Shown piece by piece: positions 47,273-64,000 of a stretch of 64,000 bases of DNA. The translations under genes were made by a program, and so were the position numbers. The number at the start of each line of letters is the position of its first letter. The stretch's first letter is position 1. This DNA is from an uncultured cyanobacterium. GTDB lineage: Bacteria; Cyanobacteriota; Cyanobacteriia; CAKZMO01. Location: positions 384,001 through 448,000 of the forward strand of contig CAVRCJ010000006.1 in NCBI GenBank assembly GCA_963719515.1, given 5' to 3'. The notes under the pieces are model-generated. The model saw only the letters and a program-made list of their open reading frames with translations. It had not been told where the DNA came from and made no database searches.

Positions 47273-48160
47273 CTAGGCCTGCCGAGGAATCGATCGCCTA
47301 TACATTTCGCATAGGTTAGAGAGAGTATCGATCAAGGTCAATCGGTAGTCTAGAAGAATTTCCTCGCTGCGGCCCTCGATTTTCAGCTGCTTGGAAAATG
47401 CATCCATAAGGTCCATGTGGATCTCAACGACTTGAACAATGGGCACGTCAGCAAAAAAGGCTGAGTTGACATAATTATCAATCTTTTGGTTGAGCAACGG
47501 ATCGTCTGTAAAGTAATTGAGAATAATTTCCTGGTAGCTTCGCTTCAGCTGAGCGAGCTGCCGCTGTTTTTCCTCTGAAGGTAGATAGCGCAGAAATCGC
47601 TCTGGATCTCGCTTATAGTAAACGCTCAAATACCCTAGCCTCTCTTTCAGCTTTTCGGCCAGTCGGTCTTGCTGACAGGCGAGCAGCGCATGCTCTTGCT
47701 TGTCGATATCATTGTGTGAAGGCTGCTCAGTTTCGCCTGATAAGGGGATTTTGAGAAACTGGTTGATCACGCGATCGATGTGGGACGGCAGCTGGTTGAG
47801 CTGCTGGAACTCCAGCCAATAGATCGCGGTGTAATATCCAAATTTATCTGGGCTGTCGGCCTGCTCGGCGATCGCCTCATCTTCGAGACGTCTGTCCCTA
47901 ATTAAAATTGTAGGCAACAAAATCGAGCGCGATCGCAGTTCGCCAAGCGCTGACGGAAGCTTGCCCTGAGCATCTAGAATTAGACAGTCAATACCATTGC
48001 GGCAGGCTTCAATCGCCTCAATGAAATCGCTGTGGGTCAGAAATATTTCGAGCTGATACGCGTCGCCGTCTAAACTTGACTTTAGTGAAGGCGCTACCGC
48101 ATCAGTCGCTAAGTAGGCATAGACAACTATCTTTGGCTTTGATTCCTGTTTGGAGGCCAT
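47273..48160 (-). CDS. kaiA: circadian clock protein KaiA
   Basis: Pseudo-receiver N-terminus; KLKERLGYLSVYYKR...LCEMYRRSIPR. Confidence 0.98.
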   Translation of the reverse strand: MASKQESKPKIVVYAYLATDAVAPSLKSSLDGDAYQLEIFLTHSDFIEAIEACRNGIDCLILDAQGKLPSALGELRSRSILLPTILIRDRRLEDEAIAEQADSPDKFGYYTAIYWLEFQQLNQLPSHIDRVINQFLKIPLSGETEQPSHNDIDKQEHALLACQQDRLAEKLKERLGYLSVYYKRDPERFLRYLPSEEKQRQLAQLKRSYQEIILNYFTDDPLLNQKIDNYVNSAFFADVPIVQVVEIHMDLMDAFSKQLKIEGRSEEILLDYRLTLIDTLSNLCEMYRRSIPRQA

Positions 48161-48257
48161 AAAAGCGCTCTACAATCACGATACATTGGTGCGGGGGCAC
48201 TACGGTCTATTGTAGAAGCTGAGCGACCATCTACTCTTGTGCCTTAGCGGTACTTCT

Positions 48258-50375
48258 ATGGATAGCGAATCGATTCAGGCTCTGATCATAGCGGTACCGA
48301 CCTGTAATGCCCAGGATCGACTGATATCGATTTTTGAACAGCTTACGACTGCCGAAGGAGAGTGGCTTTTGATCTGGGACGAGGATCCTGTCGGAGCTTT
48401 GCCCCTAGCCTCACTGTCGCAGCTGATGTCAGCGATAATTTGTGGACTGACCCAGCCTATTGACTCGCTGCCCTCCCACGACAGCGCATCAGCCCCTGTT
48501 TCTAGCCGCGATGATGCGGCCCCCATGCCGCTGCTGCAATCGACCCTGAAGCAAGTGCTTGAGCGGCCCGAGCTGCGCCTGCAGCTGAAACCGCTGCAGC
48601 TTGTTCCTGCCACTTGGTCTGTGCAAGAGTTCAAAGCTTATCTGCGGCACTATTCCGACGATGCTGCCCAATTTGAGTGGGTCGCCGTTGACGCCGAGCA
48701 GCGCCCCCTAGGGTTGCTCAACCCAACTCGGCTGGCACCGACTTGGAACAATCCACTGCCCTCCCAAGAGCTTATGGCTCAAAACGCAGAACTGGTGCAA
48801 ACTAGCCAGCTTAAAAGTAGCTATCTTGCCTATATCAGCCACGAAGTTAAGAACCCAATAACGGCAATGCTGGGGCTTTCAGAATTGCTAGCCGATTCCG
48901 CCCTCAAGAGCTTGAGCGATCGCCAGCAGCGCTATATCCAGCTCATTCGGCACAACAGCCAGCGCCTCGCTGCCATAGCCAACGACATGCTCGACCTATC
49001 GCGCGTCGAGCTAGGTCAGCTACAGCTTTCCTATCAAAGCCTATCGATTCGACAGCTGTGCGATCTCGCTTGGCAATTTCAGCCCCGCGCCGCTGCGCAG
49101 CCTCCTGCCGCTACAGTTCCGCCTTCGATCAGCATTCAGCTAGGGCTGAGCGAAATTGTGGCAGACAAGCAGCGTCTGGTCCAGATGCTGGCTCAGCTGC
49201 TCGCGAATGCCCGCCGTTCTACGGCCACATTTGGCGAGGTGGGCATTGCTGTTGAGCAGTGGGGACAGTGGTATGCCTTTACAATTTGGGATACCGGGAT
49301 AGGCATTCCTCCAGAGAGACAGACGCTACTGCTGCAAACCCTACAGCCTTTGGAAAATCCCTCTACCCATGCTGCAGAATCCGGACTGGGACTGGTTTTA
49401 ACCCAGCGACTGGTCCAGCTGCACGGCGGCGATCTAACCTTTGTCTCGAATCCTGGAAGAAGTGAGTTCACGCTGCTTTTGCCGCCTGCGCCGTCCCACA
49501 TTTCTGCGCCACCCTCTCCTCAAAGTAGTGCCGCAGCGGTTCAGATGACTCACCCTCTCGCTGTTGTCGCGGAAGCAGCGGCCTCCCACCTGACCCAGCT
49601 CGTTTCACAGCTCAGCGACATCGGTTATCGTGTCGCTGTCGCCCGCTCGGGAACGGAGGCGCTGCAAAAGGTGAGGCGGCTGCATCCCAAAATCCTCTTT
49701 CTAGATCCAGTTTTGCCTCTGCTCTCGGGCTGGGACGTCCTAGCGCTGGTCAAGGGTGACTTGGCGACTCGGCATATTCCGACTATTCTCAGCACGGCGT
49801 CCACCGCACATCCTTTAGAACGAGGGCAGGCGGACGCCGTGCTATCACTGCCGTCAACGCCATCTGCCCTGCTGCAAACGCTGGCCGATACGGTGCCGCA
49901 GGGACTGCACTCCTCAGCGTCAGCCCCCCGGACGGTGACGCCCCGAGCTCCCTCGTCAACAACGCTGACGGTGCTCTATTTCAATCCATCTGAGGAAACG
50001 GAAGCGCCGTCTACGATAGACTTCAGTGGATTACTTCATCCCTATGGCTGCCGCGTACTAGAGGTGGACGATCTCGATCAAGCTGGCCTCGTTGCGCAAG
50101 TTTGGAAGCCCAATGTGGCTCTGCTGGGCCTTTCTGTTCCGGCGAATCCTGCCTACCTCCGGCAGCTGGGGCAGCTGCGCAGTCTGGCGCTGCTGCCGAT
50201 GGTGGTCCTTGAGCCCACGATCGCCGAAGCAGGCCACCAGGCCGGACTGCTCGTCTACCCCTGCCTAATGTCGCCACATGGCCTCAAAGGAGGAGCATCG
50301 GTTGATTTGACCCTGCTGGTGCAGGTCATTCGCGTTGCCGCGCAGGGCGCAACGCTTCCGCCGGAGCCACAGTGA
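48258..50375 (+). CDS. hybrid histidine kinase with degenerate receiver domains, divergent from kaiA
   Basis: ISHEVKNP H-box, QLLANA N-box, WDTGIGI, SGLGL; receiver-like LFLDPVLPLLSGWDVL. Start 48237 or 48258. Confidence 0.85.
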   Translation: MDSESIQALIIAVPTCNAQDRLISIFEQLTTAEGEWLLIWDEDPVGALPLASLSQLMSAIICGLTQPIDSLPSHDSASAPVSSRDDAAPMPLLQSTLKQVLERPELRLQLKPLQLVPATWSVQEFKAYLRHYSDDAAQFEWVAVDAEQRPLGLLNPTRLAPTWNNPLPSQELMAQNAELVQTSQLKSSYLAYISHEVKNPITAMLGLSELLADSALKSLSDRQQRYIQLIRHNSQRLAAIANDMLDLSRVELGQLQLSYQSLSIRQLCDLAWQFQPRAAAQPPAATVPPSISIQLGLSEIVADKQRLVQMLAQLLANARRSTATFGEVGIAVEQWGQWYAFTIWDTGIGIPPERQTLLLQTLQPLENPSTHAAESGLGLVLTQRLVQLHGGDLTFVSNPGRSEFTLLLPPAPSHISAPPSPQSSAAAVQMTHPLAVVAEAAASHLTQLVSQLSDIGYRVAVARSGTEALQKVRRLHPKILFLDPVLPLLSGWDVLALVKGDLATRHIPTILSTASTAHPLERGQADAVLSLPSTPSALLQTLADTVPQGLHSSASAPRTVTPRAPSSTTLTVLYFNPSEETEAPSTIDFSGLLHPYGCRVLEVDDLDQAGLVAQVWKPNVALLGLSVPANPAYLRQLGQLRSLALLPMVVLEPTIAEAGHQAGLLVYPCLMSPHGLKGGASVDLTLLVQVIRVAAQGATLPPEPQ

Positions 50376-51473: not shown

Positions 51474-52142
51474 ATGCGGGTTTCTATACTGTGGCTGGGC
51501 TTGACGGCGCTGATGGTGGCAGGGGCGATCGCCCCTCGTGCGGTGGCGCAGTCTGAAGAGGATGAGATGCTGCTTCAAGTCGAGGGCGTGTTAGAAGAAG
51601 GGGACCGGGTTTCTCCCGATGACGGAAGTTTTTATGACACCCACTCCTTTGAAGGGCAGGCAGGGCAGACCGTGTTGATCATGATGGAGAGTGACGAGTT
51701 TGACACTTATTTACTCTTGGCAGATGCGCAGCAGAGACTGGTCGCTCGCAACGACGACCTAAACAGGACAACAACCAATTCGGGCATTGTAGCGACGCTG
51801 CCGCAAGATGGCAGCTATATCGTCGTTGCCAATGGCTTGAATGCAGAGAACCAAGGGCGATATCAGCTCACGGTGCAGGCGGTAGAAGCGCCACCAGCTG
51901 AAACAAGCGTGCCGGAAGCGCCACCAGCTGAGACAGAGGCACCAGAAGCACCATCGGCTGAAATAGGCGTGCCAGGCGTGCCGGAAGTGCCACCGGCTGA
52001 AACAGAGGAACCAGAGGGACCAGAGGGACCAGAGGAACCAGAGGAACCAGAAGCACCATCAGCTGAAATAGGCGTGCCGGAAACGCTACCGGCTGAAACC
52101 GATGCACCGGAAATGCTGCCGGCTGAGACAGAACAGCGCTAG
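51474..52142 (+). CDS. secreted PPC-domain protein with Pro/Glu-rich repeat tail
   Basis: Signal peptide; F.GQAGQ.V.I...S.EFDTYL.L...NDD...LPQDGSY; repeated E(A/V)PPAET units from about 51885. Confidence 0.85.
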   Translation: MRVSILWLGLTALMVAGAIAPRAVAQSEEDEMLLQVEGVLEEGDRVSPDDGSFYDTHSFEGQAGQTVLIMMESDEFDTYLLLADAQQRLVARNDDLNRTTTNSGIVATLPQDGSYIVVANGLNAENQGRYQLTVQAVEAPPAETSVPEAPPAETEAPEAPSAEIGVPGVPEVPPAETEEPEGPEGPEEPEEPEAPSAEIGVPETLPAETDAPEMLPAETEQR

Positions 52143-52438: not shown

Positions 52439-53185
52439 ATGACTGACCCCATCCCCACCGACATTCTTCAGGAATGCGATCGCCTCAAAACCCAGCTCGA
52501 CGCCCTCCGCCCCCTAGACCCCGCCCTCCTCAAAAACCTCCGAGAACTCTACACCGTCCGCCTCACGCACAACTCCACCGCCATCGAAGGCAACACCCTT
52601 ACTGAAACCGAAACTCAAATCGTCCTCGAAAAAGGCATCACCATCGGCGGCAAACCCCTTCAAGACCACCTAGAAGTGGTCAACCACGCCGAAGCCATCG
52701 ACTACATGCGCGACCTCGCCCAGACCAGCACCCCCATCACCCAATGGGAAGTTCGCCAAATGCATAGCTTGGTGTGCAAAGGAGATAAGCAGGCGGGAGC
52801 CTACCGCACCGTCAATGTCATGGCCGCAGGCACCAACTACCGGTATCCTAACGCCATCCAGGTGCCCGATCTGATGGCCGACTTCGGCACCTGGCTCGCT
52901 CACCCCCACCCCCTACATCCAATTGAAATTGCCACCGAACTCCATGCCCGTTTGGTCACCATTCACCCCTTCACCGACGGCAACGGCAGAGTCGCTCGCC
53001 TCCTAATGAACCTACACCTGCTGCGAACCGGCTACCCAATTGCCGTTGTCCAAGCCACTGACAGAGCCGCTTATATTGATGCTGTCGTCGCCTGGCAAGC
53101 CGGTCACACCAAACTCTTACTCGGTTTAGTGGCCGACTGCGTAAAAGCCTCAGCGATCGAAATCCTCGGTCTAGTGAATGGCTAA
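52439..53185 (+). CDS. Fic-domain AMP-transferase, class II (autoinhibited)
   Basis: Canonical HPFTDGNGRVAR; N-terminal inhibitory motif STAIEGN. Confidence 0.92.
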   Translation: MTDPIPTDILQECDRLKTQLDALRPLDPALLKNLRELYTVRLTHNSTAIEGNTLTETETQIVLEKGITIGGKPLQDHLEVVNHAEAIDYMRDLAQTSTPITQWEVRQMHSLVCKGDKQAGAYRTVNVMAAGTNYRYPNAIQVPDLMADFGTWLAHPHPLHPIEIATELHARLVTIHPFTDGNGRVARLLMNLHLLRTGYPIAVVQATDRAAYIDAVVAWQAGHTKLLLGLVADCVKASAIEILGLVNG

Positions 53186-53652: not shown

Positions 53653-53805
53653 AAACAGTTAGATTCGTGGTCCAAAAAGCGATCGCTCAATCGGGAAACT
53701 GAGCCAGCAGATCCTTACCGGAGATAATTGTCGAAGTGAACATAAAGTCGCGATTTGACCGGTAGCGCGGGTCGGTTTTGATCATCGCCGTGTGGCTAGT
53801 GCAGC

Positions 53806-56800
53806 CTAGGCGATCGCCGATTCTCGGTCGCCTGTGGAATGCTCGTCTAAGGCCAGTTCGTCCTGCGCCACAGCCTGGTGCTCCCGCCAATAATCAAACT
53901 TCGTAGTATCGATATGCTCCACAATGCCGCCTAGCTGCCGCACCTGCTGCACCATGTCGTCTGTGCCGCCGGGGCCGTCGCCCCCCTGCCCGTCCCACAG
54001 CACAAGCAGCCGCATGCAGTCAATCCGGTGAGTGAGGGCGTTGTACAGCGTCCAGCGGTTGTTGCGGCTGTAGATATCCTCCCCATCTGGAACCTTGCCC
54101 AGCCGCTCGGGCTGTAGGTGAATCGTCGCGTCCGGGTGGTTGGCGATCGCGTAGAAGCGCTCCACCCAGCGATCGCCCGCAAAATTCACAGAGTCTTGAA
54201 TAAAGCCTGGAGGGTCAAAGGGGAGATAGATATCGGCCACCATGCCGCGAGCCAGGCAGGACTCTAAAAAGAGAATGTCGCCGCCGCAGGCGATGCCGCC
54301 GCAGATGGCCCTGCAGCCCGACTGAGCGCCCAAACGCTCTAGCACCGCCTCAATGCGCCGCTTGGCTTCCGGCTCCATGGTGGCCGGAAAGCGAGGCTTA
54401 GGCCGACTGGGGCTATCGATCATGTGGCCGGAGAACATAAATACGGGGGCGGCGGTGTCTCCGTCGCCCTCCTCAATCGTGGTGCTGTTGAACCGACGCA
54501 GCTCTTCGTCTAGTACGGTGCGGCCCGCCTCCACATACTCGGGGCGAAATTCCAGCAGGTGCAGCAGATACAGCTGATCCAAAATCGATTGGAGGGCAAA
54601 CTTTTGGTTCCACAGCGCCGTTAGGGCCTTTTTGTAGGCGATCGCCACCTGTATGGGCTCAGACGCGACGCACACCGCGAGGTCTCCCAGGGACGAGGCC
54701 GCCCAAAAGTCCTTGGGGTGGTTTTGCATCTGGCTGCGCAGGCAGAACTCCACCGCCCCCTTGAGGTCCATCATCTGCTGTCGGTAGGCCGCTTCGTCGG
54801 GGTCACCCGTCGGCCCTACCCGCTCCGCTAAGCTGTCCAGCACCGCCGTCAGCATAAAGGCGTTGATGCCAGGGTAATAAGAGTTTTGGTTGAGCCGGAA
54901 GGCGCGCAGGTAGTTTTCAATCGCCTTTTGCAAAAAGTGGGAGGCGTCGTAGGCGGCTTTGATGCGCAGCTCGGCCTCTTCTAAATGGAACCACTTGTCT
55001 TTCCATAGGTCTTTATAGATCCGAGCCAGATAGGCCATGGCCTGGGTGTGATTGGGCTCGTCCTCCAGCAGCGCCTCCAGCTTCACGATGGCCTCGTTGG
55101 GCTGATGCAGGCGGCTGAGGTGGTAGGCCTCCTCGCAGCGAAACTCGACGTTTTCTGGGTTAATGTCTAGCCCTTGTCGGTACTGCTTCAGGGCCAAAGC
55201 AGAGTTCCCCGTATCCCGCAGCACTTTTCCGGCGTAGGCCAGCACGTCTTCTTTCACCAATGGATTTTTCACTTCTTCGGTGAGCAGCAGCACATCGCCG
55301 ATGCGCTTTTGCCGTTGGGCGACCTGCAGCCGCTGCTGCAGACTGGTGTACTCTTCCCAGTAGCCGGTGGCTAGAGGGGTGCGCAGGGTCTTGCGGTCAG
55401 GCTCTATCAAGCCATCCAGCAGGTTGAAGATGGGGCTGTGAATGGCGTTGCGGTCCGACTCCCAGGTGGCAAGCAGGGTGCTGATAATGGCCTGCTTATC
55501 TTTTTTGAGGTGGGCGGGATCAGGACAGCCGCTGTCATCGCAGTGGTAGGGGATGGTGCGCACGTTGAAGATGTCGAAGGGCATGTAGGCCCGTCCGGAT
55601 TGGATGTGGACGATGCCCCGCTTGCGCATGGCGTGGCGGATGCCCAGCTCGTAGTAAACGTTGGCATTGTCGATGCTTAGGTCCGCAATCACCAGGTCCG
55701 CCAGCAGCAGCTCTTGGAACATATCGGTGAGGATGTCGCCGCTGGCGGATTCTTCGTCGGCGCGAAAGGGTTCGAATCGCGCCTCTAGCAGAGCGGGTTT
55801 GATCAAATCGCTGTAGATGCGGTCGAAGTCAATCCAGCTGCCATCGGCTGCCTGCTTACGGCCAAAGGGCATCACGACAAAAGCGTGGGGAGCTCCCCGA
55901 GGCACGGTGGGCAGCTCTGTAGGCACGGGGGCGGGGACAGGGGCGGGCAGAGGCGCAGGCTCTTCTACGACCACCGCTGCAGGCACGTTGGGCGGCACCG
56001 CATCGACGCTCTTGTCGTCGTCGGCCTGAGGTGGCGCGTCCTCGGTATCGGTGAAGCCGACGTCCACCGTGATCGGCGTGATCTCAGGTTCTGTCCCTTG
56101 AGGGACCTGGTCAAGTTCAACGGGGGTGGCGGTGGCGGCCTGCAGCAGCGTCTGGTCCGTATCGTCTAGCTCGGGAATGCCTGAGGGCTGGCCCGTCAGC
56201 AGCGCCTCAGTCGCCACAACCAGCTGAAAAAATTGGGAGCCCGTGCGCTCGTCTGGCATCAGCCCCAGCCAGCGATTGCGAATTAGCATTAGCTCTAGCC
56301 GCCGCTGCGTCGCCGCCTCCAGGGTCGCGGTTAGGCCAGAGATGTCAATCCACAGCCCCACCGCCAGGCTCGCTGCCAGAGGCAAGGCGGCCCACAGCCT
56401 GAAGGGACTGGCCAGCACCAGCAGTAAAATGCTGCAGCCCCCCAAGAGCACCACTACCACCCACAGCACCTGCTGCTGGCGCTGCAGCCCAGCCACCTGC
56501 CGCGCCAGCTGAGAAATTTGCGGGTCAAGGCGTTCTGTCAAGTAGCCTTCTGCCAGCAGGTCGGGGTAGCTCTCGCGGGACGCCGCCTTTGTCATTAGCA
56601 GAACTCCGGTGGGAGCCACCTGCTGCTGCACTTGCTCTACCTGGCAAGTTAGCCAATGATGTCGCTGCGGGATCTTTTGCAGCACGGTACGGTAGAGATA
56701 AATAGCCCGCCCTAGGGTCTCGGTAGCGCTCTGCAGGGCTGCCCAGGACCGCCGCTCTCGCATTTGGCTGGCGCTGACAAACAGCATTACGGCGGCGATC

Positions 56801-57048
56801 GCCAGCCCAATCGCGCCCACGCTGAGACCCAACGCCGAAGATGCCTTAGGGGAAGACAGCAGCGCCAAGAAAATTGCCCCTAACAGCAGCGTCATCCAAG
56901 CCGCTTGGACGAGCAGATATTTTCGAAAGGAGTCGCGACCGCTCTTTTGAAGCTGGATATAGAGCTGCCAAGCATCGGCCAACAGTGAGGAATCGGAGGG
57001 GCGATGGCGTTGCGTCATAGGTGTTGAAGGTGAGAAGGGTAGCTGCAT
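53806..57048 (-). CDS. tandem SLATT (4 TM) + DRHyd/NDT-like + DUF4071/TPR-S + SLOG-like protein
   Basis: Two 2-TM modules (W..LQSATE.L..AIYLY; YLTERLDPQI); AFVVMPFG...DLVIADLSIDNANVYYELGIRHA; TPRs with YYPGINA and DFWAASSLGD; FSGHMID...ACGGDILF...LWDG.GGDGPGGT.DMV. Confidence 0.85.
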   Translation of the reverse strand: MQLPFSPSTPMTQRHRPSDSSLLADAWQLYIQLQKSGRDSFRKYLLVQAAWMTLLLGAIFLALLSSPKASSALGLSVGAIGLAIAAVMLFVSASQMRERRSWAALQSATETLGRAIYLYRTVLQKIPQRHHWLTCQVEQVQQQVAPTGVLLMTKAASRESYPDLLAEGYLTERLDPQISQLARQVAGLQRQQQVLWVVVVLLGGCSILLLVLASPFRLWAALPLAASLAVGLWIDISGLTATLEAATQRRLELMLIRNRWLGLMPDERTGSQFFQLVVATEALLTGQPSGIPELDDTDQTLLQAATATPVELDQVPQGTEPEITPITVDVGFTDTEDAPPQADDDKSVDAVPPNVPAAVVVEEPAPLPAPVPAPVPTELPTVPRGAPHAFVVMPFGRKQAADGSWIDFDRIYSDLIKPALLEARFEPFRADEESASGDILTDMFQELLLADLVIADLSIDNANVYYELGIRHAMRKRGIVHIQSGRAYMPFDIFNVRTIPYHCDDSGCPDPAHLKKDKQAIISTLLATWESDRNAIHSPIFNLLDGLIEPDRKTLRTPLATGYWEEYTSLQQRLQVAQRQKRIGDVLLLTEEVKNPLVKEDVLAYAGKVLRDTGNSALALKQYRQGLDINPENVEFRCEEAYHLSRLHQPNEAIVKLEALLEDEPNHTQAMAYLARIYKDLWKDKWFHLEEAELRIKAAYDASHFLQKAIENYLRAFRLNQNSYYPGINAFMLTAVLDSLAERVGPTGDPDEAAYRQQMMDLKGAVEFCLRSQMQNHPKDFWAASSLGDLAVCVASEPIQVAIAYKKALTALWNQKFALQSILDQLYLLHLLEFRPEYVEAGRTVLDEELRRFNSTTIEEGDGDTAAPVFMFSGHMIDSPSRPKPRFPATMEPEAKRRIEAVLERLGAQSGCRAICGGIACGGDILFLESCLARGMVADIYLPFDPPGFIQDSVNFAGDRWVERFYAIANHPDATIHLQPERLGKVPDGEDIYSRNNRWTLYNALTHRIDCMRLLVLWDGQGGDGPGGTDDMVQQVRQLGGIVEHIDTTKFDYWREHQAVAQDELALDEHSTGDRESAIA

Positions 57049-57224
57049 AGGGCTGTGGGAGAGCGGTAGCTCCTATTTAGAGTGCTACTGTTTAGCCCGA
57101 CCACAGTGACGTTACTGAACTTCTAAGGCGGAGCCTCCCGCAGTTGGGATTCGCCGATAAATTACCTGCACCCTTTTCGCTTGTTTGTTAGGACACTGAC
57201 TTTAGCAGCATCCCCTTAGACCGC

Positions 57225-57407
57225 TTAATGCCCCGCCATCTTTTGAATGACCGACGTTTGCTGCTCAATCACTGAGGTCTGCTGTTGAGATAGCGCAATC
57301 AGAGACGCAATTGATTCCTGCTGCACCAGCTGCAGCGATCGCAGCTCGCTGATCTCTTGCCTTAGGGACTGAATTTGAGCCTGTACGTCGTCTTGAGAAA
57401 ATTCCAT
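57225..57407 (-). CDS. small coiled-coil protein (60 aa)
   Basis: Heptad Q/L/I pattern; lies between the two SLATT genes on the same strand. Confidence 0.6.
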   Translation of the reverse strand: MEFSQDDVQAQIQSLRQEISELRSLQLVQQESIASLIALSQQQTSVIEQQTSVIQKMAGH

Positions 57408-57458
57408 AGTTGTCCCAAACCTGTTGGTTATTTTACATAAAGCCAGCGGCGACGCGTG

Positions 57459-58880
57459 CTAAGCCACGATGCGCGCCTTGGCCCGGTCGATGTACTTAGA
57501 GAATACATCCCAGCCATGGTAGCCGCCATTGACTAGCTTACGTACGCGCCGCCAGTCTCCGGCCCGGGCCGCTGTCGCGACGCCCCGGTCTTTGAAGTAG
57601 CAGGCCAGCACTTTAGCCGAAACTTCAGGATCCATCGCCAGATCGGGGTTGTTTTCTAAGTCAACGCCGAGCTTTTTACCGTAGGTGCGGTAGTTTGCCC
57701 GGCCCGTCAGCTGAATATAGCCCCGCCCGTGGTAGCGAACCCCATCGCCGGGGTGAATATTCCCCAGATCTTTGCGGCCTTCGTAGCGTTTCCAGTATTT
57801 CTCCCCCCCCCATTCATGAACGGGTTTCATTCCCGAGGTTTCGACGCGGATAGTGGCTAGCATGCCGATGAGCACGTGTTTGTCGAGGATGTCGTAGTCC
57901 TGCAGCGCCGCGAGAATGCCGGGAAGATACTTGCGGCAGTCTTCTAGCGGGCATTCCAGCACTTGCGACACCTCTTCCGCTGTTGCCAGCTGGGGCACTG
58001 AAGCTACGGCCCCATTTCCGCTACGGATTCTCTGGCCGGCTCCATTGCCATTGGCTACTGGCTTTGTCTGGTTCACAAGCGCCCGAAGCGCGTCGAGATC
58101 AACCTCCTCTTCCCAGGGCATCGCCGCAGCCCCCAGTGGCGGCAGCCCCTTCAACGGGTCTAGGCCATTGGGGGCTGCGGTCCCGTTTGCTACCGGCTCG
58201 CTGGCGTCGCCATCAGAAGAATGGGCCAGTCTTTGGCGTTCCTCTAACTGTCGGCGCTCTTCTAGCTGCTGCGCTCGCTCGAGCTGGACGTTAACGTTTC
58301 GCAGGGCGGCCTCGGCATTGAGCTGGGCCTCTTTAGCTGCGAGTTTATCTTCGTCCTGCTTTTCGTCTAAGCGAGCGAGGAATCCTTGGACATCCTGCTG
58401 GATGTATTGCTCGACGCGATTGGCAAAAGCGGTGTAGGCCTCGCTGTGGCTTTCAAACTGGTGATAGGGACCGGAGAGCTGGAAAAACTGCCACCCTTCA
58501 ATCTTCATCCCCTCCGCCGTGTTGCGGTAGTCACGGTATTTGTCGCCGTGGCCGAAGAACTCCTCCACCGCCGCCGAAACGGCAACGATCTGACTGAGCC
58601 CCAAAGCCGTCCATCCGACAGCGTTTTGAAAGCGCTGGTTTTCTTCGCCGGGACTGCGGAAGCTGATTAGCGCCGGCACTAAAACGCCGCCGACAATGGT
58701 GATCATTCGTAGGGTATGGTGGCGGTTGCGCTCTTTAGTGGCCCGGCCCTCTAGCCACATCAGCTGATCCAGCCAGCGATTTTTGAGAAACTCTTTGCGC
58801 AACTCGGAGATATCTAGACGATCGACGATACCGCCCAGGGTGTTCTTGAGATAGTTTCGGTAGTCATTCTTCTTGCCCAT
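57459..58880 (-). CDS. DUF4231/SLATT 2-TM domain fused to a GH19 lysozyme-like domain
   Basis: RWLDQLMWLE, two TMs, YRDYRNTAE.MK.E; coiled coil; ATIRVETS, YEGRKDLGN..PGDG.RYHGRGYIQLTGRANY, VNGG. Confidence 0.88.
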   Translation of the reverse strand: MGKKNDYRNYLKNTLGGIVDRLDISELRKEFLKNRWLDQLMWLEGRATKERNRHHTLRMITIVGGVLVPALISFRSPGEENQRFQNAVGWTALGLSQIVAVSAAVEEFFGHGDKYRDYRNTAEGMKIEGWQFFQLSGPYHQFESHSEAYTAFANRVEQYIQQDVQGFLARLDEKQDEDKLAAKEAQLNAEAALRNVNVQLERAQQLEERRQLEERQRLAHSSDGDASEPVANGTAAPNGLDPLKGLPPLGAAAMPWEEEVDLDALRALVNQTKPVANGNGAGQRIRSGNGAVASVPQLATAEEVSQVLECPLEDCRKYLPGILAALQDYDILDKHVLIGMLATIRVETSGMKPVHEWGGEKYWKRYEGRKDLGNIHPGDGVRYHGRGYIQLTGRANYRTYGKKLGVDLENNPDLAMDPEVSAKVLACYFKDRGVATAARAGDWRRVRKLVNGGYHGWDVFSKYIDRAKARIVA

Positions 58881-59319
58881 ATGCCTTTAATCCCAAGTGC
58901 TTATCGTTAAACTAGCGCAATTGTGAAGGGCGATCGCGCTCCAGCGCGTTTGCGTAGAACATCCGAGCTGTAGATGGTCCGACGGTTTTCGCCGAACTTC
59001 GCAAATACTGCAGGAAAGTCACAAAAATTCACGTCTTCAAAATCTTAAAAAGTGAAACCTGCTTTAGAGAATCAATACCTAAAAATACGCTGCTCCACTA
59101 AAAATCTCAAGCGGCTGCAGATATTTCCATGAACTTACGTTTCGATGCTTTAGGGGTATTTACCAAAACTTTATTTCGCTCAGGCTATAGTGCAAATATC
59201 TTGCTTTGCCTTGAGGCCGCCTTCCTCGAGGCTAGAGCCAGGATTATTGCCCAGAACGGTGTAATAAGCCGTGCTAATGCGGGCGATTGTGCAACTACCG
59301 CTTAGGCTCCCCAATCGTC

Positions 59320-60513
59320 ATGAATCTTCACCTTAACGTCCTCCAGCCTCAGTACGAGCGAGCGTTTCTCAACTGCGCTATTCGGTCCGACAGTCAGTCG
59401 CAGGTCGAGGCGATCGCCAATCAGATGGTTGGGCTGCGATCGCATTACGAAGCCGTAGAAGCAGAGACGGGAGTGCCCTGGTGGTTTGCCGGGATTTTGC
59501 ACTACCGGGAGTGGAATTTTCGGGAGCCTGAGCTGTTTGAGCGTAAAGCAGCAGAGGTTTTGATTGCCAAAAACTATCATCAGGCCCGTACGCGCACCTT
59601 AGGAGCCTACCTGTGGGGCTTTGACCTTTGGAACGGGTTTCGAGACGGCTCGGGTGAAGACTCCTCCTGGGTGTGGGCGGGCACCAACATTCTTGAAGAG
59701 GACACCCAAAAAATTGGGGTTGCCGCCATCCTGGTGTATCTGCAGAAGAGGAATATCATCGACATGCCTAAGCCCCAAAAGGGGGCGCGGCTGATAGTGC
59801 TTGCAGATACCACCTTTAAGGTCCGGCCCGAGCAGTCCTACCGCCTGAAGTCAGACGAGAAGATGGTCGTCAAGGCGGGGACTCAGCTCGAGGTGCTAGA
59901 AGACGATCCAGCGGAGGGCAACCACACCAAAATTGTGCTCCCCGATGGGGTACTGATGGGGCAGGATAGCCGCAGTGACTGGTATGTGTTCAGAGGGCAT
60001 GTGTCCATGGAGGGCACTGATCCAAAAAATCAGCCCAAGGACGAGCCCGAGGAGCCTGTCGCCTCGGTGGCTTCTGAAGACAAAGGAAACCCCATTACGG
60101 TGCCTAAGCTGGGCACCGTGTATCTCGGCAACCCCATCTTAGAAGGGGGGCATTTTAGCTGGGCTGAGGCCACTAAAAACGGGGCCCGCATTCCCGTAGA
60201 CGGGGGGGTTGTGGACGGCATCCTTAAAATTGCTGAGGTGATGGAAGAGGTGCGGGAGCATCTGGGCGATCGCTCCATTCGGGTTAACTCCTGGTACCGC
60301 GACCCGGTAACCAACCGCCGCGTGGGGGGAGCCAGCAAATCGCGCCACCTGAGCGGCGATGCGGTGGACTTTGTGGTGTCAGGCATCTCTCCGCCTCAGG
60401 TGAATCGTCAGCTCGAGTCCTGGTGGAACAGCCAGGGCGGTCTGGCCAGCGCCAGCAGCTTTACCCACCTCGACGCTCGCGGCTATCGCGCCCGCTGGTC
60501 ATACGGATTTTAG
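59320..60513 (+). CDS. peptidoglycan hydrolase: lysozyme-like N-terminus, SH3-like middle, peptidase M15A C-terminus
   Basis: YEAVEAETGVPWWFAGILHYRE; DTTFK...EK..VKAG...WYVFRGHV; NSWYR...N.RVGGA..SRHLSGDAVD...FTHLD (Zn ligands H, D, H). Start placed at MNLHLN. Confidence 0.85.
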   Translation: MNLHLNVLQPQYERAFLNCAIRSDSQSQVEAIANQMVGLRSHYEAVEAETGVPWWFAGILHYREWNFREPELFERKAAEVLIAKNYHQARTRTLGAYLWGFDLWNGFRDGSGEDSSWVWAGTNILEEDTQKIGVAAILVYLQKRNIIDMPKPQKGARLIVLADTTFKVRPEQSYRLKSDEKMVVKAGTQLEVLEDDPAEGNHTKIVLPDGVLMGQDSRSDWYVFRGHVSMEGTDPKNQPKDEPEEPVASVASEDKGNPITVPKLGTVYLGNPILEGGHFSWAEATKNGARIPVDGGVVDGILKIAEVMEEVREHLGDRSIRVNSWYRDPVTNRRVGGASKSRHLSGDAVDFVVSGISPPQVNRQLESWWNSQGGLASASSFTHLDARGYRARWSYGF

Positions 60514-60528
60514 TTAGAAAAAGTAGCC

Positions 60529-63500
60529 ATGAATAGCTTCCAAGATGCGTTTATCTCCTACGGACGCAAGGACAGCAAGGCGTTTGTCGCTCGCCTAAAT
60601 CAGCGGCTGTTGGCGGCGGGGTTAGAGATTTGGTTTGATTTTGACGACATTCCCCTGGGTGTGGACTTTCAAAATCAAATCGATGACGGCATTGAAAAAT
60701 CCCACAACTTTTTGTTTGTCATCTCTCCTCACGCCGTCAACTCTCCCTACTGCCGCAAGGAAATTGAGCTAGCGCTTCGCCACCGTAAGCGGGTTATCCC
60801 GCTACTGCACGTGGAAGAAGTAGACCGGGCAACCTGGGCAGCGCGATCGCCAGACGGTACCAATGAAGATTGGGACACCTATTGCGCTCAGGGACTGCAG
60901 TCTAGCTTTGTCAACATGCACTCCGACATCGCTAAGATCAACTGGGTCTATTTTCGCGAGGGGCAAGACGACTTTGAGGCTGCGTTTGCAGGGCTGTTGG
61001 ATATCATCGGCCGCCAGCAGGATTACGTGCATCAGCATACCTATCTGCTCAAGGATGCTCTCACCTGGGAGCGGCAGCAGCGGCAGCCTACCTACCTGCT
61101 GGGCAAAGACGCCGGGCGTGCCCACCAGTGGCTGACGAAGACGTTTGACGAGCAGCCCCCCTGCTTCGCTACTGATCTGCAGGCGGAGTTCATTACCGAA
61201 AGCCTAAAGCGGGTCAACGGGGGGATGACCCAGGTGTTTTTGTCCTACAGCGAGGAGAACCGGCTGCAGCGGGAAGTAATTCACCGTATTCTCCAGCGTC
61301 AGGGCTTCACGGTTTGGGTCAACACCACCGATATTCAGAGCGGTACGGATTTTGAGCAGGCGATTCGAGAAGGCGTAGAGCGGGCTGACACCGTCGTTTA
61401 TTTGCTCTCCCCCAATGCTTTGGCCTCCCAATACTGTCAGCAGGAGCTTGGCTTTGCCCAAACCTACAACAAGCGGATTATCCCACTGCTGATTCACCCT
61501 GTGGATGGGGTGGAGGTGCCCGATGAGCTGCGGGTCATTCAGTTTATCGACTTTCAAATGATTTCTGGGACTGATGAGGCAGAAGGCAGGGTCGAGGACG
61601 AGGCGGCGCAGGGGGCCATCGCCAAGCTGATTCAGGTGCTGCGGCAAGACGAAGACTATTATGACTGCCACAAGCGCACCCTAGTCAAGGCGTTGCACTG
61701 GGAGCGCAACCGACGCCGCAAGAAGCACCTGCTGCGGGGGAGCGCGTTTGCCGAGGCGGAAACCTGGCTGACGGCCAGTCGGCACCAGACGCTCCCGCCC
61801 ACTCGTCTGCAGGAAGCGTTTATCCAGGCTAGCCAGGACATCAACCGCTACTTTGACGCCTTTATCTCCTATGGACGCGCCGATAGTCTTCAGTTTGCGG
61901 TTCAAGTGCAAGAGCAGCTGAGCCAGCAGGGGCTAAGCGTCTGGCTCGATAAAAGCGACATTCCGGTGGGGGTCGACTATCAGGCTCAGATCAACGACGG
62001 CATCAGCAAGTCCCACAATTTCATTTTCATCATCTCCCCCCATGCGGTCCACTCCCCCTACTGCCTCAAGGAAATTGAGTTTGCCCTGAAGTTCAACAAG
62101 CGCATCGTGCCCCTGATGCACGTTGAAACCATTAGCTACGAGACCTGGCGGCAGCGCAACCCTGAGGGCACTTCGGCCCAGTGGAAAGATTACCAAGCGG
62201 CGGGGCGGCATACCGCACAGGGAAGCGTCCACTCCGAAATCAGCAAAATCAACTGGCTCTTTTTCCGTGAGGGGGTAGACGAGCCCGAAGCCGCGATCGC
62301 CAGCCTCATCGAGCTGCTGCGGCAGCATGAGCCGGTGGTTCATCTGCACACTGAGCTATTGCTCAAGGCGTTAGCCTGGGATACTCACCAGCGGCAGGCT
62401 CAGTATCTGCTCACCGGAGACGATCGGCGGGAGGCGGAAGCCTGGCTGACGGCAGACTTTGCGGAGGAGCAGCCTCCCTACCGACCCACCGACCTGCAGG
62501 CGGCGTTCATCACTGAAAGCATTAAAAGCGTTGACGGGACGACGCAGGTGTTTTTGTGCGCGGCGGACGAGTATGGGAATGAGGAGCCTTCAGCCTCAGA
62601 GGCACCGGCGGCGGACACTCCTATACTCCAGTCAGCTCAGATTCGGCGAGCCCTGCAGCGCTCGGGCATTCCCGTCTGGAATCCCCAAACAGATGTGCAG
62701 GCCGGGGAGAATTTACAGCGGGCGATCGCTCGCGGGGTTGAGGAGACCGACAGCGTTGTGTTTGTGATATCGCCTCAAGCGCTGGTAGAAACGGTGTGTC
62801 TTGAGATTTTAAACCAGGCATTTCAGCTCAACAAGCGCATCATTCCGGTGCAGCTGCAGGCCTTGGATAATCTGAAGCTGCCCTCGGTGCTCAAGTCGCT
62901 GCGGCCCATCGGGCTAGAGCGCGATGGCGGCGGGCTGACGGAACTGAGCGTCCAGCAGCTCGTGGGAGCTCTGCGTCAAGATGCGGTGTACTACCGCACC
63001 CACAAGCTGCTGCTGCGCAAAGCCCTCAAGTGGGAGCGGCAAAAATATAACCCCAGTATCTTACTGCGGGGCAAAGCGCTGCGGCGCTATGTCACCTGGC
63101 TCGACGTGGCGCAGCGCCGTGAGCATTCTCCCATTCCCATTCAGCAGCGCTTTGTCCGCGAAAGCCTGGACCAGCCCCCTAACCAGACCGTGGACGTGTT
63201 TATTGCCTCAGCTCCAGAGGACATCGAGTTTGCCCGCAGACTGAACCAAACCCTCCAGGTTCAAAGTAAGACCACTTGGTTTGAGCAAGAGCACCAGGCC
63301 ACCGAGGTCGACGCCCAAGGCGATGTTCGGCAGGCGATAGAAAACGCCGAAAACGTGGTGGTAGTGGTGTCTCCTAACTCGGTGGGCTCTGCCGCTGGCC
63401 TCAAAGAGCTAGAGCATGCAGAAGCCCTCAACAAGCGCGTTATTCCAGTGCTCTATCAAGAGGTGCTGATTTCGAAGCTGCCCCCCGTCTTAGAGAAGCG

Positions 63501-64000
63501 CTCGGCCATCGACTTCCGCGCCAACAGCGGCGACTTTTTGACCAACTTTGGCGAGCTCTACCGGGCCATTGAGAGCGAGCCCCAGCATATGTATCAGCAC
63601 ACGCGGCTGCTAGTGAAGGCGAAGGAGTGGCACGACGCAGGGCGAGACGACAGCTACCTGCTGCTGGGACGCGATCGCGATGAGGCGGTGGACTGGCTGG
63701 CGGCGGCTGACGCTAAGACCCCCTCGCCTACAGATCTGCACCGAGGCTACGTTAAGGCGAGTCAGCAGCTGCCGTTTCGCCGTATCAGGCGGCGCTTTGC
63801 GGTGCTCACCAGTCTGGCGGCGACCGTCTTGGTGGGCGGGCTGAGGTTGGTGGGCGGCCTGCAGGCGGCGGAGCTGCAGGCGTTCGATCACCTGCTGACG
63901 CTGCGGCCCAGTGAGCCCCAGGACGATCGCTTTTTGACGGTGACGGTGGATCAGTCGAGTGGCTCCTGGCTGCGGGAGCGCTTGATTGACGGCGACTACG
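60529..64000 (+). CDS. five-TIR / TM / CHASE2 protein, 3'-truncated by the window (>1157 aa, absent from the track)
   Basis: Hand translation open from ATG 60529 to the window end. TIR starts: DAFISY 60544, QVFLSY 61231, DAFISY 61855, QVFLCA 62545, DVFIAS 63193. TM about 63796-63855, then LQAAELQAFDHLLTLRP.EPQDDRFLTVTVD (CHASE2 start). Confidence 0.9.
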   Translation, partial: MNSFQDAFISYGRKDSKAFVARLNQRLLAAGLEIWFDFDDIPLGVDFQNQIDDGIEKSHNFLFVISPHAVNSPYCRKEIELALRHRKRVIPLLHVEEVDRATWAARSPDGTNEDWDTYCAQGLQSSFVNMHSDIAKINWVYFREGQDDFEAAFAGLLDIIGRQQDYVHQHTYLLKDALTWERQQRQPTYLLGKDAGRAHQWLTKTFDEQPPCFATDLQAEFITESLKRVNGGMTQVFLSYSEENRLQREVIHRILQRQGFTVWVNTTDIQSGTDFEQAIREGVERADTVVYLLSPNALASQYCQQELGFAQTYNKRIIPLLIHPVDGVEVPDELRVIQFIDFQMISGTDEAEGRVEDEAAQGAIAKLIQVLRQDEDYYDCHKRTLVKALHWERNRRRKKHLLRGSAFAEAETWLTASRHQTLPPTRLQEAFIQASQDINRYFDAFISYGRADSLQFAVQVQEQLSQQGLSVWLDKSDIPVGVDYQAQINDGISKSHNFIFIISPHAVHSPYCLKEIEFALKFNKRIVPLMHVETISYETWRQRNPEGTSAQWKDYQAAGRHTAQGSVHSEISKINWLFFREGVDEPEAAIASLIELLRQHEPVVHLHTELLLKALAWDTHQRQAQYLLTGDDRREAEAWLTADFAEEQPPYRPTDLQAAFITESIKSVDGTTQVFLCAADEYGNEEPSASEAPAADTPILQSAQIRRALQRSGIPVWNPQTDVQAGENLQRAIARGVEETDSVVFVISPQALVETVCLEILNQAFQLNKRIIPVQLQALDNLKLPSVLKSLRPIGLERDGGGLTELSVQQLVGALRQDAVYYRTHKLLLRKALKWERQKYNPSILLRGKALRRYVTWLDVAQRREHSPIPIQQRFVRESLDQPPNQTVDVFIASAPEDIEFARRLNQTLQVQSKTTWFEQEHQATEVDAQGDVRQAIENAENVVVVVSPNSVGSAAGLKELEHAEALNKRVIPVLYQEVLISKLPPVLEKRSAIDFRANSGDFLTNFGELYRAIESEPQHMYQHTRLLVKAKEWHDAGRDDSYLLLGRDRDEAVDWLAAADAKTPSPTDLHRGYVKASQQLPFRRIRRRFAVLTSLAATVLVGGLRLVGGLQAAELQAFDHLLTLRPSEPQDDRFLTVTVDQSSGSWLRERLIDGDY

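Follow-up and report, generated by a model that had tools for sequence, protein, structure and literature searches.

The described systems closest to the locus presented here pair TIR domains with SLATT membrane proteins. Thoeris type VII, reported in Cyanobacteriota, consists of the TIR protein ThsB and the SLATT protein ThsH and uses cyclic ADP-ribose as signal (bioRxiv 10.64898/2025.12.03.692087), and Shaseng consists of two TIR proteins and a SLATT protein (bioRxiv 10.1101/2024.12.27.630466); both are tested anti-phage, cell-killing systems. SLATT is described as a nucleotide-regulated membrane effector, and a TIR-DRHyd-SLOG clade is stated, in two further papers (PMC9503650, PMC7159879) that make no mention of hydrolase fusions in the parts covered; wall-attacking effectors occur there in a different, EAD1-linked system (PMC7159879). 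The subject of this study is a divergent locus of five genes (A to E) within a stretch of 64,000 nucleotides, the whole of which is called the window below, from an uncultured cyanobacterium (CAKZMO01; assembly GCA_963719515.1, contig CAVRCJ010000006.1, positions 384,001 to 448,000 of the forward strand). The genes of this locus very probably form one functional module, and we lean towards lysis of the producing cell as its output, brought about by a TIR signal, a SLOG sensor, a SLATT pore and endolysins.

Systems combining SLOG (LSDAT), SLATT and TIR, as well as DRHyd/TPR-S systems, were reportedly predicted by Burroughs, Aravind and colleagues in 2015 and 2020, who are not known to have discussed hydrolase fusions. 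The phage holin-endolysin lysis cassette is made of a small membrane protein and of a muramidase and a peptidase that have no signal peptides. CHASE2 receptors are known from the Sinorhizobium receptor cyclases CyaD1, CyaD2 and CyaK, for which a protein signal is reported together with NsrA (PMC13001267), and from cyanobacterial CHASE2-DUF928 clusters (PMC5587647); further related literature is PMC8195603 and PMC13276650.

Five genes around a divergent spacer

An initial annotation of the window, made from its sequence alone, had proposed five open reading frames, and all five were found where it had placed them, including the start of gene E at 60529, 15 base pairs (bp) past the stop of gene D:

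Gene A, 53806..57048, minus strand: 1080 amino acids, two SLATT units (four transmembrane segments), acidic linker, predicted DRHyd/TIR-like domain, ASK1-like TPR-S and predicted C-terminal SLOG
Gene B, 57225..57407, minus strand: 60 amino acids, Gln-rich, probably a coiled coil judging by sequence; directly downstream of the SLATT-GH19 gene in relatives
Gene C, 57459..58880, minus strand: 473 amino acids, SLATT (DUF4231), helical stalk, low-complexity linker and phage-type GH19 muramidase
Divergent spacer, 58881..59319, no strand: 439 bp, presumed site of both promoters
Gene D, 59320..60513, plus strand: 397 amino acids, no signal peptide; lysozyme-like N-terminal domain (D_N), SH3b and M15 zinc peptidase
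Gene E, 60529..64000, plus strand: first 1157 of 1503 amino acids, with the end of the gene 1040 bp beyond the window

Profile searches with hidden Markov models agreed with most of the domains that had been proposed: Pfam finds DUF4231/SLATT and GH19 in C, Peptidase_M15_3 in D, five TIR_2 domains and CHASE2 in E, and SLATT_1 and TPR-S in A. The spacer had been described as AT-rich and about 440 bp long; its size is right, and the AT-richness shrinks to a mild one (45.8% GC, compared with 57.0% for the genome), because 3.5% of 5000 random 439-bp windows are equally low in GC. A promoter scan of the spacer returned a single sigma-70-like match, on the minus strand and not above chance, and terminator scans were likewise at chance level. 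Gene D starts with the ATG at 59320; a TTG lies upstream at 59287.

Linkage and exchange of parts among cyanobacteria

The SLATT domain of gene C has 91 matches in 78 of 401 genomes of the class, all of which were fetched; the set comprises 85 loci once the locus of the window is set aside and five double matches are each counted as one. Labels for the neighbouring genes come from BLASTP against domain queries (E 1e-3) and were in part checked by Pfam, and the neighbour counts are lowered as 13 of the 86 stretches have less than 2.5 kb on one side. TIR genes are found within 2.5 kb at 26 of the 85 SLATT loci (8 families, 19 genera), compared with at most about 1.2 expected, a chance figure that takes each domain match as a gene, stems from one query and ignores kinship; since kin are not independent, this enrichment is no p-value. 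SLOG genes lie within the same distance at 46 loci (LSDAT at 44, A-type at 3) and a hydrolase is fused to the SLATT domain at 17 (5 families, 11 genera). A second hydrolase gene is located beside 12 of the 17 fused loci, compared with 2 of the 68 unfused ones, and TIR, SLOG and hydrolase occur together at 6 loci. Full-length D_N is restricted to 13 of the 401 genomes, the same 13 that have a SLATT protein of the clade of the window: in 11 of them both are on a common contig, and the remaining two have each of the genes at the end of a contig.

Thus, the expectation that the two arms would be linked in other genomes is borne out, with receptor-TIR, SLOG, SLATT and wall hydrolases supported as one system. 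What is conserved is a modular family and not the five-gene order, which is intact in genome G002, split over two contigs in G001 and found only in the genus of the window (G, C and L numbers are our identifiers for genomes, contigs and loci). Parts are swapped and roles are kept: GH19 alternates with GH24, M15 with another endolysin domain (domain X, below), LSDAT with the A-type sensor, and CHASE2 with WD40 on the receptor, and the roles that persist through these swaps are receptor-TIR, SLOG, SLATT, muramidase and peptidase. In most relatives a standalone LSDAT gene stands in for gene A, and TIR-CHASE2 is a facultative partner. The only LSDAT gene of the window's own genome (G000:C11:160780-161493) is solitary and distant from the locus; it could work in trans.

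Starting from the GH24 form of SLATT, a further scan kept 80 of 94 loci, 17 of them GH24-fused and carried by Anabaena, Nostoc, Calothrix, Scytonema, Crinalium and others. All 17 have a D_N-SH3 gene, and LSDAT is present at 15, CHAT at 11, TIR-CHASE2 at 10 and TPS at 7; the common order, on one strand, is CHAT > TIR3-CHASE2 > DUF928 > LSDAT > SLATT-GH24 > 111 amino acids > D_N-SH3-X. The 111-amino acid gene of Nostocales was considered as a counterpart of gene B and rejected, as its alignment to B is unconvincing. Other orders are LSDAT < SLATT-GH19 | D > TIR5-CHASE2 (L103), TIR-WD40 behind C-B (L102), A > LSDAT > SLATT-GH19 (L199), LSDAT > SLATT > SLATT-C39-GH19 > TIR-WD40 (L107) and, in L202-L214 of the Xenococcus/Pleurocapsa type, TIR-WD40 > standalone SLOG or DRHyd-TPR-S-SLOG > SLATT. 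Loci L113:3027-7263 and L210-L212 have the order LSDAT > SLATT > Cache-domain protein > C39-PG-binding-GH19 > C39 > TIR, in which the sensor differs and the hydrolases are free, and in L112:1392-3536 an nSTAND1 NTPase is fused to the SLATT family of C. Cultured strains with the gene set are Leptolyngbya sp. PCC 6406, Trichormus variabilis SAG 1403-4b and Calothrix brevissima NIES-22.

When phylogenetic trees are built from the SLATT domains, the window falls into a clade with both GH19 and GH24 fusions (support 1.0; 100 in a quick tree of 50 of 155 rows), and a separate clade (support 96) holds fusions to C39, GH19 or M15. The fusion of SLATT to a hydrolase likely had two origins, because a single clade for all fusions is rejected (approximately unbiased test, p-AU 0.024, 43 rows, after seven long-branch rows were dropped and with groups named after a tree had been viewed). 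The named fusion carriers appear to be of filamentous genera, with one fused record labelled Cyanothece; the named carriers that we take to be unicellular (Microcystis, Xenococcus, Pleurocapsa) have unfused SLATT. The homologues of the locus genes are cyanobacterial. Records from Nitrospira, Planctomycetota and Ignavibacteriales (L218, L226, L227, L235-L246) contain the same SLATT family and DRHyd-TPR-S(-SLOG) genes, with no hydrolases in view.

In a second genus (g2), D|C-B is kept and LSDAT takes the place of A in 3 of 4 genomes; where readable, D is followed by unrelated genes and not by E. As g2 keeps D|C-B but not E, three unrelated modules juxtaposed in one genus were suspected at first, a reading dropped after the class-wide and Nostocales loci had been mapped. 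That two modules, SLOG-SLATT-hydrolase and CHASE2/DUF928/TPS/CHAT, share a neighbourhood, E sending no signal to C, is, in our estimate, very unlikely. It would agree with the unrelated genes after D in g2 and with TIR-CHASE2 orthologues elsewhere: SLATT is absent from the stretches fetched around all 12 other loci, and the most constant neighbour of TIR-CHASE2 is DUF928. However, TIR-CHASE2 and SLATT stand together in at least four gene orders (L033, L103, L105, L121, L169-L185), TIR is the linked one among several CHASE2 outputs, and TIR-WD40 is in the same place elsewhere (L102, L107, L110, L183).

Like the restriction of the exact gene order to one genus, the kinship behind the TIR enrichment and the TIR-CHASE2 loci without SLATT, several further observations weigh against one receptor-to-lysis system: a TIR gene is within 2.5 kb at only 8 of the 17 fused loci and TIR-CHASE2 at 4 of the 85 loci, 10 of the 26 neighbouring TIR genes have the opposite orientation, the A orthologue of G029 stands alone, and G006, G010, G014, G016 and G022 carry a TIR-CHASE2-type gene and have no match to the SLATT of C. 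In G024, TIR-CHASE2 is near a TPR-S-SLOG-cyclase, and the TIR signal may therefore have non-lethal readers. The window's own genome (contig C10) encodes RyR-TPR-S and SLOG-cyclase in two adjacent open reading frames (L069:6915-9245) whose counterpart in G009 (L068) is a single protein; they may likewise read the TIR signal.

The same cassette could be triggered by phage, with the hydrolases bursting and detaching the infected cell before virion maturation in a Thoeris VII-like abortive infection, and the WD40 versions sensing phage proteins in the cytoplasm. We regard this as unlikely. In its favour, the TIR and SLATT pairs of Thoeris VII and Shaseng defend against phage, many of the linked TIR proteins end in WD40, presence is patchy (78 of 401 genomes), and an enrichment of DUF4231 in defence islands is reported (PMC10799925). 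A copy is also decaying, as D of G004 (L038, same genus) has several stops beside C, which indicates a locus under loss there. The suicide defence that the initial annotation had named as one outcome finds no support in the genomic context: at 1e-20, PADLOC models match just 10 of 133 neighbours, with 160 eligible, mostly through single shared domains and with no background set for comparison. This disfavours a defence island, and a neighbourhood that is not one of defence genes counts against the proposed system too. The annotated neighbours are cellular and housekeeping genes, for example recG, leuA and serS, the CHASE2 domain is on the periplasmic face, and the plasmid collection contains no match, for which reason plasmid cargo was rejected as well. 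A prophage remnant was rejected, as C is not covered to 80% by any phage record and the annotated neighbours are cellular.

Membrane, wall and receptor proteins

The SLATT domain of C is recognised by DUF4231 (E 1.6e-30) and above cut-off by the NCBIfam model SLATT_1, and its GH19 domain matches the endolysin family PHROG 181 (E 1e-44) and carries the motifs E-T-x7-E and GRGYIQLT. The membrane domain matches the unnamed PHROG 7395, and no holin family is among the matches listed. Both ends of the SLATT domain, and hence the muramidase, are probably on the cytoplasmic side, because the hairpin is bordered by basic residues (5 Lys/Arg on one side and 4 on the other, compared with 1 in the loop); it speaks against reliance on this topology that it is a rule-of-thumb charge bias, and that the second transmembrane segment is under the hydropathy cut-off. 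Among the best 120 of 169 homologues of the C SLATT domain (260-828 amino acids), 69 have GH19 (62 and 7, of two kinds), 27 have GH24 and 24 have neither. A crude pattern finds the GH19 motifs in 20 of 24 fused proteins, in 2 of the 20 at the wrong place and with truncated genes among the misses, and the GH24 catalytic motif is present in 16 of 17. A 99%-identical copy of C (P0001) is frameshifted within GH19 (401 amino acids), by sequencing error or as an inactivated allele. Gene B has no Pfam or PHROG match; an alignment of 11 homologues has an invariant core, and all 14 homologues found sit just behind a SLATT-GH19 gene.

Gene D matches the endolysin family PHROG 894. Its structural model matches lytic transglycosylases, SH3b and 1LBU, each moderately (Z 5.8-6.9), and the His/Asp/His of M15 is visible in the alignment. 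D_N may be inactive, because its putative Glu is kept in 12 of 14 M15-type and in 0 of 7 Nostocales-type sequences. In the Nostocales proteins the M15 domain is replaced, on the same D_N-SH3, by domain X, which, with the L169 domain as query, matches PHROG 33083 (annotated 'endolysin') and PHROG 3000; a search of solved structures with X returned nothing, and the ESM Atlas matches of X and D_N are unnamed, mostly viral clusters. Its H...SAGC motif may resemble active sites of the L,D-transpeptidase family. Domain X is located between LSDAT and SLATT in L217, and its sole trace in the window's genome (tblastn) is right behind A:

Remnant of the C-terminus of domain X, 53687..53790, minus strand: about 33 codons, tblastn of the L169 domain, E 1.4e-9

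The hydrolases had been proposed to have no signal peptides, and D-type proteins indeed have an N-terminal hydrophobic stretch in 0 of 34 cases, compared with 13 of 16 for DUF928 and 11 of 12 for TPS proteins. This argues against an outward weapon whose hydrolases are delivered to neighbouring bacteria, as do the membrane anchor of C and the fact that no candidate periplasmic immunity gene was seen; in spite of the linkage to a two-partner secretion cluster and the lysozyme folds common to secretion effectors, we consider such a weapon hardly credible.

For gene A, Pfam supports the tandem SLATT proposed for its N-terminus through SLATT_1, the first unit being weak (DUF4231 E 0.0046) and stronger in homologues, and hydropathy shows four hydrophobic segments; a match of this N-terminus to a holin family is insignificant (E 0.17). 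The proposed DRHyd and SLOG domains have no significant Pfam match and find their support in fold comparisons. The AlphaFold model of residues 386-1061 (mean predicted local distance difference test score, pLDDT, 93.7) is best matched by the central regulatory region of ASK1 (5ULM, Z 15.8, root-mean-square deviation (rmsd) 3.7, 263 aligned). Its first 142 residues (386-527) match the TIR domain of TIR-1 (Z 11.5, rmsd 2.7, 122 aligned), and matches to DprA (Z 11.9, rmsd 3.3, 149 aligned) and ShosA (Z 11.0, rmsd 3.9, 148 aligned) extend into the C-terminal domain, where the DRHyd and SLOG Z-scores come from one three-domain model and not from singly folded domains. Since the model matches ASK1, TIR-1, DprA and ShosA, these data support the order DRHyd/TIR-like, TPR-S, SLOG; Foldseek with the same model returned only TPR proteins. 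The Glu-bearing motif N-N-V-x-Y-E-L-G of A is kept in 16 of 16 homologues from fetched loci.

At full length, E has five TIR_2 domains with helical spacers, a transmembrane segment, CHASE2 and three more transmembrane segments. The catalytic Glu is present in TIR1, 2, 3 and 5 and lost in TIR4; ten Nostocales-type TIR-CHASE2 proteins have it in all three TIRs. Beyond the window, the right arm continues with a gene for a secreted TPR protein, with weak likeness (48 residues) to the DUF928 neighbour of another TIR-CHASE2 gene, and then a TPS-CHAT gene (G000:C6:450109-457026, L001:14109 to L002:5026). The latter is in four frames in this assembly, which weakens its part in the proposed pathway; the first frame break is absent from the closest named relative, L192, and the breaks either come from an assembly error or mark a pseudogene.

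These secretion genes bear on a further explanation, non-lethal wall remodelling or export, in which SLATT would export hydrolases in the manner of a holin and these would make local gaps in the thick cyanobacterial wall, for example for a TPS exoprotein and its ShlB channel. Holin- and hydrolase-dependent secretion is a precedent. Export would account for TPS at 7 and CHAT at 11 of the 17 GH24 loci, with ShlB beside them, for TPS-CHAT after E and the secreted TPR gene, and for TPR-S-SLOG domains that feed cyclases too. We nevertheless think it quite unlikely, as the muramidase is covalently bound to the membrane domain, 68 of the 85 SLATT loci are unfused, many fused loci have no visible TPS gene and the characterised TIR-SLATT pairs kill.

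At the left end, the locus is flanked by a Fic-domain gene (window 52439-53185) and a gene for a PPC-domain exported protein with Pro/Glu repeats (51474-52142), neither of which has a match in the G002 stretch. Further to the left (47273-50375), a gene that we presume to be KaiA-like is divergent from a hybrid histidine kinase gene.

Proposed mechanism and comparison with described systems

Gene linkage, domain identity, catalytic residues and repeated like-for-like swaps are the observed basis for reading the cassette as a modular, chromosomal one, mostly of filamentous cyanobacteria, and by analogy somewhat more probably than otherwise as a device for holin-endolysin-like autolysis under second-messenger control. 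In this lytic pathway, CHASE2 would read a periplasmic cue, probably together with the secreted DUF928-type neighbour and the TPS/CHAT proteins, and the cue would cluster the cytoplasmic TIR domains of E. These TIRs, which have the residues required, would turn nicotinamide adenine dinucleotide (NAD+) into an ADP-ribose-type signal that may be bound by the SLOG sensor (in A; LSDAT in most relatives), by the SLATT domains or by both, and SLATT proteins would then open or breach the inner membrane. The muramidase of C on the cytoplasmic side and the signal peptide-less D are placed such that they could now reach the peptidoglycan, and cutting of glycan and cross-links would lyse the cell and break the filament.

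More tentatively, this could be a dedicated programmed cell death pathway of filamentous cyanobacteria, from a receptor to autolysis: an extracellular protein cue processed by TPS/CHAT/DUF928, CHASE2-TIR, a NAD-derived messenger and a SLATT pore with endolysin. In the boldest form of this reading, the receptor would be Toll-like, a domesticated phage endolysin would be part of the SLATT pore itself and the cell would turn into a necridium-like break point. If true, this would be a molecular mechanism of regulated filament breakage and an instance of wall lysis driven by TIR signals in a role other than phage defence. Known effectors of TIR signals drain NAD+, cut proteins or breach membranes; an effector that directs phage-type endolysins to the wall of the producing cell would add a new output. 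To our knowledge, the genes that execute regulated death in cyanobacteria are poorly defined. Physiologically, such death is described for necridia, hormogonium release and bloom collapse (PMC9415839). The cassette offers a concrete gene set in named cultured strains that is open to deletion and switching on, and a possible output for orphan CHASE2/DUF928/TPS/CHAT clusters.

The claim that no described system has this combination has to be divided. TIR with SLATT is known as a tested anti-phage pair from Thoeris VII and Shaseng, and for the coupling of SLATT to wall hydrolases we found no literature report: no paper on a SLATT-hydrolase fusion or on this locus appeared in a search whose scope excludes Burroughs 2015/2020 and the Thoeris supplements, and the main text of the Thoeris preprint does not contain the terms lysozyme, peptidoglycan, endolysin and WD40, while its supplements (29 putative types) may hold a related class.

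With the predicted SLOG-SLATT-TIR systems the cassette shares the domain set and the logic of sensor and pore: Pfam LSDAT_prok, SLATT_1/3 and TPR-S match its proteins, and SLOG is linked to SLATT at more than half of the loci (46/85). Like the Sinorhizobium cyclases with NsrA and the CHASE2-DUF928 clusters, it has a CHASE2 receptor linked to exported or outer-membrane proteins; unlike in CyaD1, CyaD2 and CyaK, the output of E is five TIR domains and no cyclase, and the linked effectors attack membrane and wall. GH19, M15, GH24 and the partner domains of Nostocales match phage endolysin families, as in holin-endolysin cassettes, from which the locus differs in that membrane part and muramidase are one polypeptide, the membrane part is a SLATT domain with no holin family among the matches listed, no phage genes were seen around it and control appears to be by a nucleotide signal. 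Thoeris VII and Shaseng are matched in the TIR with catalytic Glu (4 of 5 in E) beside a SLATT membrane protein. In contrast to both, the cassette has its TIR domains on a membrane receptor, several in one protein and joined to CHASE2 or WD40; a SLOG sensor is usual, SLATT bears a muramidase and a second hydrolase gene is linked; a divergent multi-gene locus with a 1503-amino acid membrane receptor replaces the compact Thoeris VII operon with its cytoplasmic TIR, and the cassette loci, unlike Thoeris VII, are not among defence genes. By analogy, the cassette would thus work like a Thoeris VII wired to a holin-endolysin output, set apart from Thoeris VII itself by architecture and context.

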